64,000 bases of DNA from NCBI GenBank assembly GCA_964447285.1, contig CAYURO010000026.1, forward strand, positions 143 through 64,142, read 5' to 3'. Of the stretch, positions 9,001 through 18,000 are shown one piece after another (position 1 is the first letter of the stretch; each line of letters starts with the position of its first letter). A program made the position numbers. Origin of the DNA: an uncultured Enterobacteriaceae bacterium (GTDB taxonomy: Bacteria > Myxococcota_A > UBA9042).

Positions 9001-12000
9001 TCCTGTCCAAACGGTCAGTTCTGTTTGGATGGCAAGTGCCTATTGGGTGTTTGCACGCCGGGCACCACGAAGTGCGAGGGACTGCAGCTTGCCTCTTGTG
9101 CCACGGACGGGTCCGCGTGGAAGACGGAGGCCTGTCAGACCATCGGCGGCAAGCCCCACGCCTGTGCGTTGTTGGGGGGCGCGGCGATGTGCCAGCCCCA
9201 AGTTTGCACGCCAAACGCGACACTGTGCCAGGGCAGCAAGGTGGCGCAGTGCGACGGAACGGGCACCTCCGTCACCTTGGGTGAGGACTGTGCGCTCAAG
9301 TTCTCCGGAGGCGTGCCGAAGGGCTGTGCGGCTGGTGTCTGCATCGACCCCAAGTGCTCACCTGGCAAGGTGGTCTGCATCGACAGCCAGACGGTTGCGA
9401 CCTGCGGCACCGACGGCATGACGTGGAACAAGCAGCCTTGCTCGTCGGACATGGCGTGCGAGGGCGCGGTGTGCCAGCCCCTGATCTGCACGCCGGGTCA
9501 GACCAGCTGCGACGGCGACTACGTTCAGAAGTGCAACGTCAACGGCACCTTGATGGCGGTCGTCGAGGATTGCGGGGCACTGGGGACACTGTGCCAGGAC
9601 GGCAGTTGCCTTGCGCTGCTGTGCACGCCCAAGCTGAAGAAGTGTGAGGGCAGCGTGTCGCTGACGTGTGCGGCGGACGGGATGTCGTGGAAGACGGTCG
9701 CCTGCCCGGTCAACCAGGTCTGCGCAGCGGGAGACTGCCTGCCCGTGATCTGCAGCCCCGGTGCCCTGTCGTGCGACGGTGAAGTGGCGCGCAAATGCGA
9801 GCCGCCAGGAGCCTCCTACAGCGTCATCCAGGACTGCGCGTTCACCGGCATGACCTGCGAGGCGGGCGCGTGCAAGGCCCTGTTGTGCAAGCCGGGCGAC
9901 ATCCAGTGCCAGCTCGATCAGGTGGCCGTCTGCAGCGGGGACGGCAAGAAATGGAACGTCACTTCGTGCGCCGACGCCGACCCGTGCACCTTCGACAGCT
10001 GTGACGCCGCCAAGCTGACCTGTGCCCACTCTGCACCGTGCGACGACGGCCAGGTCTGCACCACGGATGCCTGCAAAAGTGGCAAGTGCGCGAATACACC
10101 GCTGACAGGACCGTGTACCGACGGGTCAGCCTGCACCGTTGACGAGTCCTGTTTCGAGGGCAAGTGCCAGCCCCCATCCGCGCCGCTGGTCAGCACCGCG
10201 CTGGGGACAGGAATCAAGGGAGCCGAAGACGGTGAGGTGGCCAAGGTCCAGTTCAACGGCCCGGCCGGCCTTGCGCGCGGTCCGGATGGCTCGCTCTTCA
10301 TCGCCGACCGCGACAATCACCAGCTGCGTCGGATGTCTTCGGACGGCACGGCCGTGTTCGTCGTTGCGGGCACCGGAGCCCAGGGCACCACCGATGGGTC
10401 CGCGGGTTCGGCGACGTTCGACCAGCCTATTGCGCTGGCGGTCGACGCGAACGGGACGGTGTACATCGTCGAGGTCGGCAGCCGCCGCATTCGCCGCTTC
10501 ACCCTCGCCAACGGCGTGCAGACCTTGGCGGGCAGCCAGACGCAGGGGTCCAAGGACGGCATGGGTGCGGCCGCCACCTTCGACCGTCCGGTTGCGCTTG
10601 CCATGGAGTCGTCGGGTAACCTGCTGGTCTCGGACGCAGGTGGCTACCGCATTCGCCGCGTGACGCCGCAGGGGCTGGTGTCGACGGTCGCAGGCGGCGT
10701 GCAGGGCTACAAGGACGGTCCAGTCGCCCAAGCGCAGTTCAGCAGTCCGGCGGGGCTGGCAGTGGCGCCGAACGGCGACGTGTACGTGCTGGACCCCGGC
10801 AACGCACGCGTGCGGCGCATCCACAGCGGCGCGGTCGAGACGGTCGCCGGCAGCACGCCTGGCTATCAGGACGGCAAGGGTGCGGAAGCGAAGTTCCAGG
10901 CGCCGACCGGACTTGCGTGGACGATGAGTGGCTATGGCGTCGTGACGGACATGGTCCAGCATCGGCTGCGGGCGGTGTGGCCCGACGGCACGGTGACGAC
11001 GCTGGCGGGGACCGGAACGGCGGGTTTGCTCAATGGGCTGGCGACTCTGGCGACCTTTCAGGTGCCGTTGGGCGTGCTGGCGGAAAAGTCGGGGGTGCTG
11101 CTGGTGGCCGACTCGGGCAACCACGTGATTCGGCGCATCGTGCCGAATGCCTTGACTTGTGACGACTTGAACGCGTGTACGGCGGACCAATGCAACACAG
11201 TGACGGGGCAGTGCGTGTTCACACCCATCGTCGGGCCTGGCTGCAACTAGCGGGGATTACGGCTGGACCAGGTTGTTCAGCTTCAAGACGGCCAGCTGGA
11301 GGTTCAGCGTCTCACGCTCCTCCTGCAACTCCGCCAGACGCAACTGCGTATCCGCTTCGGCGACTTCCAAAGGCGTGACCGCGCCCGCATCCAGCGACTT
11401 CTGCACGATGACGGCGCTGCGGCGGGCGACCTCAGCCTGCGACTGCACCACCCGTAGCGTTTCGCCGGCAGACTCGACTTCCAGCGCGACCTGACGAACC
11501 TGTGCTGCCAGCTCGTTTTCGGCCTTCTGCAGCTCGGCCTCCAGGCGAACCAGTGTCTGCCGGCGCTCGCGGGCCTCGGCATAGCGCGACCCGCGATCGA
11601 ACAGCGGGATCACGAGGTTGGCCGACGTCGACCAGACCCAGTTCTCTCCGGTGAAGCCCTCGGTGTCGGAATAGCGCACCAGACCGTTGGCCGTCAGGAT
11701 GGGCATCCAGCGCCACTCAGCCTCGGTCACCAGCGCCTCGGCTGCTCGCAGTGCCTGGCGCCGTGCGGCAAGGTCGGGTCGATTCTTGCGGGCCTGCGCG
11801 GTCCACTCGTGCACGCCCCCCTGCGGACGAGCAACGGCAGCCACGGGGGCCAGATCGTCGGGAGCCGGACCCCCCATCAGGATCCCAAGAATTTCGACAA
11901 GCTGTCGGCGAGCCAGTCGGGCGCGGACCAGATCCTGCTCGGCGCGGGCGCGTTCGGCTTGGGCACGCAGCAGGGGCAACTCGCTCTCGGTGCCCTCCTT

Positions 12001-15000: not shown

Positions 15001-18000
15001 CTCGGCCGTTCGCAGCTCGCCAGTCAGGCGCACCGACATCTCCGTTGGGCCCTCCTGGTAGTGGCCGGCGGGCAACGTCAGGTTCTCCGCGCGCAGCTTG
15101 TCGATCACGGCCGTCAGCGGCAGGTTGGTCGCGTCCAGCCGCTTGCGGTCGATCTCGACCAGAATCTCTCGATCGCGCCCGCCCTTGACCTCGACCGCAG
15201 CAACGCCAGGCGCACGCTCGAGCTGGGGCTTGACGAATTCTTCTGTGATCTGGCGGAGCTTCTCTTGCGGCAAATCACCCGAGGCGACGTACGTCAGCAC
15301 CGGCGCGGCGTTGATGTCCAGCCGGCGCACCGACGGCTCCCGGACGCCCTGTGGCAACTGGGCTCGCACCGCGGCGACCCGCTCGCGCACATCGTTGGCC
15401 GCCCGGTCGATGCTCGCGCTCATCTTGAACATCACGAGCACAATCGACACCGACTCGCGAGAGAACGACCGCACACTGTCCAGATCGTTGATGCCGGCGA
15501 CCGCGTCCTCCAGCGGCCGCGAGACCTGCCGCTCGACTTCGGAAGGCGACGCGCCGGGATAGACAGTGGTGATGCTCATGAACGGAAACGTGACATCGGG
15601 GAACAGGTCGGTGCCAAGACGGGTAAGGCTCACCCCTCCCAACACCATCAGCGCCGCGGTCACGACGATGGTCAACACGGGCCGCCGAATGGCGACATCG
15701 GAAAGCGTCATGGCTGCGGGCTCCTAGCGGACGTGCACCGGGGCGGTGGCATGGGGCAGGGTGTCGCCTTCGCGCCAGCTGGCACCGGGCTGAACCACGA
15801 CGGTGTCTTCGATGGTCAGGCCCTTGGTGACGTGGATCATCCCCGCCTCCGTGCGCACAACGGACACCTCACGTCGCATCAGCTTGCCATCGGGTCCGAC
15901 GATCAGGACCGCCGGTGTGTCGCCCGTCAGGACGGCCGTCTGGGGAACCAGCAGTGCGGGCACGGCTTGGGCCTCGATCCTCGCGTCGACGAAGGTGCCG
16001 GAAAGCAGCTTGCCGTCGGGGTTCTCGAGGATGCCTTCGACCGGCACGCGTCGCGTCGCAGGGTCCAGACTGGGCACCAGCACATCGACCTTGCCGACGG
16101 CGGTGACGCCCGAGTCGGTTTCGATCGACAGTCTTGCGCCGACCACCATGCGAGGCGCGTCCCGGTCCGACACATGGCCGATGAAGCGCAGGCGGGACAG
16201 GCGCTCGATGCGGAACAGCGGGATCCCGGGCCCGGCAAACGAGCCGGCCGCGGTAGGGGCCATGACGACGACTCCATCGATGGGTGTCACCAGCCGTGTC
16301 TCTTGGCGCATGACTTCGACATACCGTGCCGACGCCGACGCTTGGGCCACCGACGCCGACCCCAGATTCGCCTGTCCGCCGGCCATCACGACCTGTTGCT
16401 GCGAAGCCGCGCCCGCCACCTCGAGAATTTGGGAGCGGTGCAGGGCGTCGACCGCCAAGTTCTTCTGAGCGCGCGCCGCCTGCATCCCCGCCTGAGCCTG
16501 CGCCGCTTGCGCGTCCAGATCGCGGTCGTCGATGCGTGCAAGCAACTGTCCCGCCTGCACGATGTCGCCACGCCTGACCGCCACCTCGATGACGCGGCCG
16601 GGCAGCTTGAATGCAAGGTTGACGTCGGCATCGGGCTTCAAGGTGCCGGTCAGGCGCACATCTTCCGTCCCAGGGCCGGGTTGTGGATGCGCCAGCGCGG
16701 GCGGCTGCACGTCCTTGGCCCGCTCCGCGCGCGCGCGAGCCTCAGCCGCCAAGGCTTGGTTGTGCTCGATCTTGAGGCTGACTTTCCACGTCAGGACGCC
16801 GCCGAAGCCCAGCAGGCCCAAGACGACGATGGCGATAGCGATGCGTTGCGAATTCAAGGCTTGGCCTCCAGTTGGGCGGAAACGAGCGAGACGTCTTGGG
16901 GGGGGGGCAAGCATTGGCACAGCGCGACCAGAACGTGCTGGCGGAACCGCGTGACTTGCCGCGCCATGTCGGGGGGCGTCGTCGCGCGGATGATCTGGCG
17001 CGCATACATGTAGATGATGCCTGCGGCCATCATGGCGCCGAACTCGGCGTCGATGACCTGGGCAAGCGGCGGGTGTGCCCGGACGTTGCGGGCGATGTCT
17101 TCGCGCATGTGGTGAACGACCGAGTCCAAGAACTCGTCGGTCAGGAACGCAAGCTCGGTCCCCGCGGCACCCTCGAGCACCATCCGCAGCTCCAGCCGAC
17201 GTTGCCACAGGAACGCGCAGAACTTCTCGTCCAGTTCCTGCGTGCGCCCTTCCGCAGGACCCATGGCACCAAGGCTGCACGCCTCGTCGTCGTAGGCGCG
17301 CAGGTGCTCGAGCAGGTCCTGCAGGAACACACGTGCGACCTGCAGGTACAGGGCTTCCTTGGACTCGAAGTACAGGTAGAACGCGCCCTTCGACGTGCCG
17401 GCGCGGTCGGTGATGTCGCCGACGCGGGCGCGGTCCAAGCCCTGTTCGGCAAACACCTCTGCGGCGGTGGCCACCAGCGCCTGTCTCAGCTGCGGATTGG
17501 GTGCTCGACTCATGCGTGACTCCCGAGTCAGTGACCCACGAGTCACTGACCGACGGGTCACATAAGGACGCCCGCCGCCCCCGTCAAGTGCGAAATGGAA
17601 AACAATGACGCAGTGCGTTGTTTACGACGCAGGCATAGCCCATGCGCCACCCTGAACGGGCTCCTGTCGGCAAGGAATCTGCAACGGTCTTCCAGACCAT
17701 TCTCGCCCGTATTGGACGCGCCCGCGAGAACCCATCTATCCTCCCGCTGCATCTCACAAAGCCCATCGGGCCCCCAGGGATGGCGAACGCTGTCTTTCCG
17801 AAAAGTGACCGCGCAAGGAGACCCTGTATCCATGGATGATTCCCGCCTGCCCGCCCGCCTGCCACTTTCGATCGACGCCGACCCGCAAGAGACCCGCGAG
17901 TGGGTCGACTCGCTGCGTTCTATCCTCGATTCGTCCGGTCCAGAGCGCGCCCACTACCTGATGCGTCAACTGCACGAGAGCCTGCAAACCGAAGGCATTT

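Follow-up and report, generated by a model that had tools for sequence, protein, structure and literature searches.

How can a single open reading frame (ORF) encode both the inner-membrane motor and the outer-membrane channel of an efflux pump, and how would each part then reach its own membrane? This question is raised by a stretch of 64,000 nucleotides from an uncultured bacterium (assembly GCA_964447285.1, contig CAYURO010000026.1; the whole stretch is hereafter called the window), in which a permease of the resistance-nodulation-division (RND) family continues, without a stop codon, into a TolC-like outer-membrane factor (OMF). Gram-negative bacteria rely on tripartite RND pumps as their main efflux machines, and how a pump is matched to its channel is still debated. 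The original prediction, made from the sequence of the window, had offered three readings of this ORF: internal initiation that yields a separate OMF, a polyprotein from which signal peptidase releases the OMF, or a stop codon lost through an assembly error. Across the family, sequence comparisons support the second of these best. The ORF is a genuine fusion of an uncultured myxobacterium, probably maintained by selection, whose single precursor would be cut by signal peptidase I into an RND permease with a 13th transmembrane (TM) segment and a mature OMF.

One frame for an RND permease and an outer-membrane factor

The translation of the ORF, together with Pfam and NCBIfam searches, agrees with the original prediction in that a complete RND transporter is followed in frame by an OMF/TolC-type module. 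The junction reads ...LPAVYLWFDSAQGGL-MRIFRKSSAKAALPADAAKASATVVALLLAMGLALAWPTQATA|QPAP... in one frame, without a stop. This sequence was reproduced as predicted, as were the in-frame ATG at 12664-12666, the GGGAGG at 12671-12676 and the length of the OMF module, which is 469 aa when counted from Met1016. The parts of the gene are the following:

11257..15711, minus strand: RND::OMF fusion ORF, 1484 aa, 159.7 kDa, ATG start, stop codon included
12682..15711, minus strand: RND permease module (Pfam ACR_tran), aa 1-1010, 12 TM segments
12604..12681, minus strand: putative cytoplasmic linker and n-region, aa 1011-1036 (AQGGLMRIFRKSSAKAALPADAAKAS), net charge +4
12556..12603, minus strand: hydrophobic h-region or 13th TM segment, aa 1037-1052 (ATVVALLLAMGLALAW), 16 residues, hydropathy peak 2.48
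12538..12555, minus strand: c-region PTQATA, aa 1053-1058, with Ala at -3 and -1, Pro at -6 and Gln at +1 of the predicted cleavage site
11260..12537, minus strand: predicted mature TolC-type OMF (OEP, TIGR01844), aa 1059-1484, 426 aa, 46.4 kDa

The RND module is of the AcrB type over its full length, with the ACR_tran profile (PF00873) covering aa 4-1008 from profile position 2 to 1020 of 1021 (E 4.8e-259). Its score against NF033617 (RND_permease_2) is 808 bits, below the curated cutoff of 1250, and thus the module has no named equivalog. Proton-relay motifs were found as LLIDDAVVV (aa 397), GLVTKNG (aa 916) and RRLRPILMTS (aa 949), their equivalence to D407/D408, K940 and R971 of AcrB (TM4, TM10 and TM11) being judged by eye. 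AcrB has 12 TM segments and a cytoplasmic C-terminus; in 40 fused homologues, we counted 12.0 hydrophobic segments per protein before the junction. By analogy, the termini of the RND module would be cytoplasmic.

In the OMF module, two OEP repeats (PF02321) extend up to aa 1481 (E 1.6e-47), and the TolC-family model of NCBIfam (TIGR01844) aligns to aa 1072-1479 (profile positions 2-394 of 414). This TolC-type model outscores the NodT-type one (TIGR01845), and aa 1016-1072 of the window protein contain no cysteine and hence no lipobox; based on both observations, the OMF module is TolC-like and non-lipidated. Processing as a lipoprotein by signal peptidase II was also rejected for the relatives P0015 and P0025, whose cysteines do not fit a lipobox. 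Among PDB sequences, the module matches TolC best. The AlphaFold model of aa 1017-1484 (pLDDT 84.6) consists of a helix, a disordered spacer and a complete OMF protomer. The four strands of the protomer occupy module residues 97-106, 134-153, 322-332 and 342-351, and its long hairpins are built of helices with a length of 35-69 residues. Foldseek matched this model to OprN, CusC, CmeC, OprM and TolC over ~420-430 columns (E 1e-16 to 1e-18). Considering the full-length profile matches, the proton-relay motifs and the complete OMF fold of the model, both modules look functional.

A protein search with the whole ORF retrieved ~45 clusters that combine PF00873 and PF02321 (1420-1563 aa, 42-94% identity). 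They come from NCBI, JGI, ENA and Logan assemblies, and the few that are named belong to Myxococcales or "Deltaproteobacteria" metagenome-assembled genomes (MAGs). The closest relative (P0001, 1483 aa, 94% identity) is found in a syntenic operon on contigs of three independent assemblies. In addition, one genome per GTDB species was scanned with a profile of the OMF module, which gave 34 loci. Nearly all of these carry titles of uncultured Myxococcales/Myxococcota or unclassified (Delta)proteobacteria MAGs, and the isolate names suggest a lake origin for many. At 24 loci the C-terminal motif of the RND permease and the OMF share a single open frame of 1465-1591 codons, and two more loci end at contig edges. 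The comparison of orthologous loci that had been suggested with the original prediction came out with the open frame kept in 24 complete loci. Given that the junction is in frame in these 24 other loci, and that both halves are full-length family matches, the fusion goes beyond chance. When the RND part was placed in a neighbour-joining tree, the 33 sequences of the main fused group, the window among them, formed one clade, which has diverged to ~54% identity with both modules intact. P0033 had been a candidate for an unfused member of this clade and was rejected, being a contig-end fragment that already enters the 13th hydrophobic segment.

The junction across the family

Comparison of 49 distinct junctions revealed a linker after TM12 that is poorly conserved and varies from 8 to 64 aa, with no stop or frameshift in any of the 49. 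A linker so free to vary in length, and always in frame, argues that the reading frame is under selection. The linker is net positive in 47 of the 49 junctions (in the window, five K/R versus one D/E) and is followed in every case by one uncharged hydrophobic stretch with a median length of 18 aa. Next comes, typically, a proline with a small-x-small motif, and OMF helix 1, whose start is conserved ("LTL..A"), lies after these. The window follows the same order: a proline comes directly after its h-region, which at 16 residues is shorter than a typical TM helix and which AlphaFold models as one helix (module residues 15-34).

A signal peptidase I site is predicted in the window at A-T-A|Q, between aa 1058 and 1059 (nt 12538|12537). 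It was placed by simple rules (small residues at -3 and -1, no proline at +1), combined with a control for the Ala-rich composition of these proteins, in which the junctions were compared with 481 other hydrophobic segments (12.0 per protein) and with random 14-mers. An AxA motif within 14 residues past the hydrophobic core of the junction is present in 85% of the proteins, versus 1% of the other segments and 18% of the random 14-mers, so that the explanation of AxA by Ala-rich composition alone was discarded. The loose -3/-1 rule holds for 100% of junctions (39% of other segments, 58% of random 14-mers), and a proline stands at the end of the hydrophobic stretch in 80% (29% and 38%, respectively). 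By its sequence the junction looks like a cleavable signal peptide and not like the true TM helices of the family. The Sec-signal-like segment with an AxA site described in the original prediction is thus recovered not only in the window, where A-T-A follows the h-region, but in most of the family. The distance from the AxA site to OMF helix 1 is ~2-15 residues, with only ~2-7 in many members (e.g., P0025, P0027, P0032, P0036, and P0043). Long spacers, of 20-60 residues from the hydrophobic segment to helix 1, occur in a few (P0003, P0024, and P0038).

Stand-alone relatives of the OMF help to interpret this segment. Six to seven of the loci found in the genome scan encode OMFs that are not fused (~53% identity where compared, L007 and L008), and in two MAGs a stand-alone OMF and a fused gene are present together (bin-517, L003 and L007; Deming_bin.407, L004 and L008). 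The stand-alone OMFs begin with an N-terminal signal peptide that ends in AWA|E, ARA|A or ALA|D directly before the same helix 1. As the position is the same, the 13th hydrophobic segment of the fused proteins is most simply explained as the OMF's own signal peptide. A stand-alone OMF that is 49% identical to the window module (L033) lies beside masked residues on a contig titled as an "uncultured Enterobacteriaceae bacterium" MAG (CAYHHL010000003.1), which is probably mis-binned or mislabelled.

Proposed processing of the fused chain and the alternatives

The biogenesis that we propose would start with a single 159.7-kDa precursor made by the ribosome. Its 12-TM RND module would be inserted by the signal recognition particle, SecYEG and YidC and would end in the cytoplasm. 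The positive linker and the hydrophobic segment, i.e., the OMF's own signal peptide that is now internal, would then insert with the N-terminal side in and the C-terminal side out as a 13th TM segment, and the OMF chain of ~430 residues would be threaded into the periplasm, much as the large periplasmic loops of the RND module itself. Cleavage by signal peptidase I after A-T-A (aa 1058) would give an RND permease with TM13 (113.3 kDa) and a mature OMF (46.4 kDa). Periplasmic chaperones and the β-barrel assembly machinery (BAM) would carry the latter to the outer membrane, where it would join the periplasmic adaptor and the RND permease in an ordinary tripartite pump. The fusion would in this way fix a 1:1 synthesis and a co-localised production of the 3:3 partners. 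In the sub-clade of the window, a GGAGG-N4-ATG in the linker may add independent translation of a pre-OMF. In structures of TolC and AcrAB-TolC, the OMF N-terminus is positioned far above the inner membrane. Considering this distance and the short spacer between AxA and helix 1, the barrel could arrive in the outer membrane only if the chain were cut, and signal peptidase I cleavage appears, from the junction sequences, to be the most economical explanation.

Several observations weigh against this proposal. All members of the fusion come from metagenome-assembled genomes of uncultured organisms; to our knowledge, signal peptidase processing of an internal signal that follows a polytopic bacterial membrane protein is rare; and the cleavage is a prediction from the junction. 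If it did not take place, the product would be a TM13-anchored polypeptide with its C-terminal module as outer-membrane channel, that is, a covalently tethered pump spanning the envelope. The long spacers of P0003, P0024 and P0038 would suit such a tether, whereas those of ~2-7 residues in many other members are far too short for the position of the OMF N-terminus in assembled pumps, and the junction resembles a cleavable signal peptide rather than a TM helix of the family, which makes an uncleaved chain highly improbable. Harder still to maintain is that the frame is an artefact or a decaying gene, its stop codon lost by a sequencing or assembly error or by a recent pseudogenising mutation. 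It is true that high-GC genomes are stop-poor and that read-through ORFs arise easily in them: on the plus strand, a 1555-aa ORF (12346..17013) runs antisense to the RND::OMF and adaptor genes, almost certainly as a shadow of the 67% GC sequence, which shows how little the length of an ORF proves by itself in this genome. However, the stop-less junction recurs in three independent assemblies, in the ~45 clusters and in the 24 complete loci of species-representative genomes, and the main fused group is a single clade of the RND tree in which both modules are intact. The reading of the original prediction that invoked a lost stop or an assembly error is, accordingly, refuted by these comparisons.

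The remaining counter-evidence concerns the linker of the window, where a GGAGG lies 4 nt upstream of the in-frame ATG (12664-12666, Met1016). Such a Shine-Dalgarno (SD) 5-mer is seldom combined with ATG: the ORF has the combination at two positions and each strand of the 64 kb at ~20, and ~0.02 would be expected by chance in a 75-nt linker. The start of the RND gene itself uses AGGAG. The ATG with its SD is kept in L001-L004 (79-94% identity) and only there besides the window, and the surrounding 58 nt (12642-12699, minus strand), which take in the GGAGG, the ATG and the last part of TM12, show a single difference from L001 and from L004 against a mean of 7-8. This places them among the lowest 1.4-2.5% of stretches of the gene by differences, and just 1 of 19 third positions differs between the window and L001/L004 (mean 5.3-5.6), with the boundaries of the 58 nt set post hoc and the comparison resting on effectively two lineages. 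Such synonymous conservation might stem from an internal region of translation initiation or from an RNA element, and independent translation of the OMF could be important in this sub-clade. Initiation at this ATG would produce a 50.7-kDa pre-OMF with an N-terminal signal peptide, and if this were the functional route here, the 160-kDa chain would be a by-product or would be cleaved as well. Yet the feature is limited to one shallow sub-clade nested within the fused clade, and the other members share no conserved start. The linkers of L021 and L028 have no ATG, GTG or TTG at all, and the sole candidate of L030 is a GTG inside the hydrophobic core. The OMF of these organisms can thus come only from the fused chain, and internal initiation is not a family-wide mechanism. 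Moreover, with no stop in the frame, each ribosome translating the RND part still yields a fused chain that needs disposal, and an independently translated OMF would tolerate frameshifts or stops in the linker, of which the 49 junctions have none. We therefore rejected internal initiation as the general mechanism and consider it rather unlikely as the functional route in the window, where it is retained as a plausible addition to the cleaved precursor; this is what is left of the first reading in the original prediction.

Origin of the fusion, known systems and the locus

The closest unfused RND permeases (Polyangium, ~55% identity) are encoded in the order tetR-MFP-RND, where MFP is the periplasmic adaptor or membrane fusion protein, with no adjacent OMF, and they end 20-25 residues past TM12. 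In L008 (5216-11755), the stand-alone OMF is part of a tetR-OMF-MFP-RND operon, whose RND permease is only 37% identical to that of the window while the OMF reaches 53%. The OMF lineage thus seems, from these identities, to have switched from one pump operon to another. A second fused clade (P0036, P0043, P0044, P0047, P0059, and P0099), together with P0038, has RND modules that are 51-53% identical to that of the window and OMF modules that are only 25-30% identical. As different OMF lineages are joined to related RND permeases, there were at least two independent fusions; a single ancient fusion was not supported, given that the OMFs of the second clade are so much more distant than their RND modules, and more distant than an OMF from an unrelated operon. 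It can be argued that at least two fusions with different OMF lineages point to an advantage rather than an accident. At the same time, the RND-OMF fusion is rare in sequence data: in a search with the OMF profile that covered 1.84 billion cluster representatives, one of the 150 best matches is clearly fused (P0006, 1523 aa), and nearly all the others have the size of an OMF (420-660 aa) or are shorter fragments. The balance of the evidence tilts towards a machine across the bacterial envelope in which the motor of the inner membrane and the channel of the outer membrane start out as one polyprotein and are split by signal peptidase at a retained internal signal peptide, an arrangement that evolved at least twice independently in Myxococcota.

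The components of the pump are ordinary; what is new is their fused encoding, with the unusual biogenesis problem that it brings. As in MexAB-OprM-type operons, the three structural components are present in the order regulator-MFP-RND-OMF, the regulator being here of the TetR family. In contrast to those operons, there is no stop between RND and OMF, and the OMF signal peptide is internal, as a 13th hydrophobic segment. A typical OMF is translated separately and has its export signal at the N-terminus, whereas here the signal-like segment is found at aa 1016/1037-1058 of 1484. The closest bacterial precedent known to us for the proposed mechanism is FbcH, the cytochrome b/c1 polyprotein of Bradyrhizobium japonicum, which, according to work attributed to Thöny-Meyer and colleagues in about 1989-1991, is reportedly split post-translationally from one precursor into two subunits of one complex. 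This system likewise has a polytopic inner-membrane protein that ends in the cytoplasm, an internal signal sequence and a periplasm-facing partner within one ORF. The families are unrelated, though, and both products of FbcH are said to stay in the inner membrane, whereas the OMF would have to go on via BAM; also, cleavage was reportedly demonstrated for FbcH, while for RND::OMF we infer it.

Two other cases resemble parts of the proposal. In the structural polyproteins of Flaviviridae, translocated domains are interspersed with internal signal or anchor segments, and the host signal peptidase separates the proteins by cutting on the lumenal side (PMC7601889). This is a viral system of the eukaryotic endoplasmic reticulum with no evolutionary relationship, and the likeness is one of mechanism only. 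SecDF of Thermus thermophilus is a gene fusion within the RND superfamily (PMC8277102). Here too, two partners of one machine are a single polypeptide in some lineages and separate genes in others; SecD and SecF, however, share one membrane and remain covalently linked, with no need for cleavage of an internal signal peptide. The original prediction knew of no fusion between RND permease and OMF, and no description of a natural one was found in the literature searched, which included a comprehensive tripartite-pump review of 2021, a survey of outer-membrane porin fusions and a census of myxobacterial transporters.

If the cleaved polyprotein is real, its repeated independent origin would point to selection for making RND permease and OMF in a 1:1 ratio and co-localised, and the RND permease would keep a permanent 13th helix. 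A lineage that has hard-wired both partners would then offer a ready-made system for the study of coupled biogenesis and stoichiometry, and could show how an outer-membrane β-barrel is handed over from a co-translationally inserted inner-membrane protein to the chaperone/BAM pathway. It would also add to the very few bacterial membrane polyproteins that are processed by signal peptidase. For annotation, the fusion is a blind spot, as names such as "efflux RND transporter permease subunit", "HAE1 family protein" or "hypothetical protein" hide the OMF. Its practical reach is small, given a clade without cultured members and a pump whose own chemistry looks ordinary.

In the window, the gene order is tetR-MFP-RND::OMF, all on the minus strand, with two genes upstream of the fusion:

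16854..17513, minus strand: TetR-family regulator, first gene of the operon (Pfam TetR_N, E 2e-15; 219-aa ATG form)
15724..16857, minus strand: periplasmic adaptor (MFP), 377 aa, TTG start (TIGR01730 RND_mfp, E 3.1e-60; Pfam HlyD_D23)

The syntenic locus L001 has a called TetR gene that agrees with the 219-aa ATG form of the regulator, and it also encodes a 377-aa orthologue of the adaptor. In the window, the adaptor has an N-terminal membrane anchor. The tetR stop and the MFP start share the TTGA at 16854-16857, an overlap that suggests translational coupling inside the operon. The MFP gene lies 12 nt upstream of the RND ATG, which is preceded by the AGGAG at a distance of 9 nt.

On either side, the operon is flanked by genes of the plus strand. 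A protein of 2629 aa (245-8134) and one of up to 1321 aa (7285-11250) both contain NHL/teneurin-NHL and Dictyostelium CTDC repeats, the former with a C-terminal TLDc domain, and both are syntenic with the locus of the relative (L001). The second of them is convergent with the RND::OMF gene, with 6 nt between both stop codons. At the other end, the E1 component of pyruvate dehydrogenase (17595-20456) is encoded divergently from the tetR-MFP-RND::OMF operon, and the same neighbour is found in L001 and L002.

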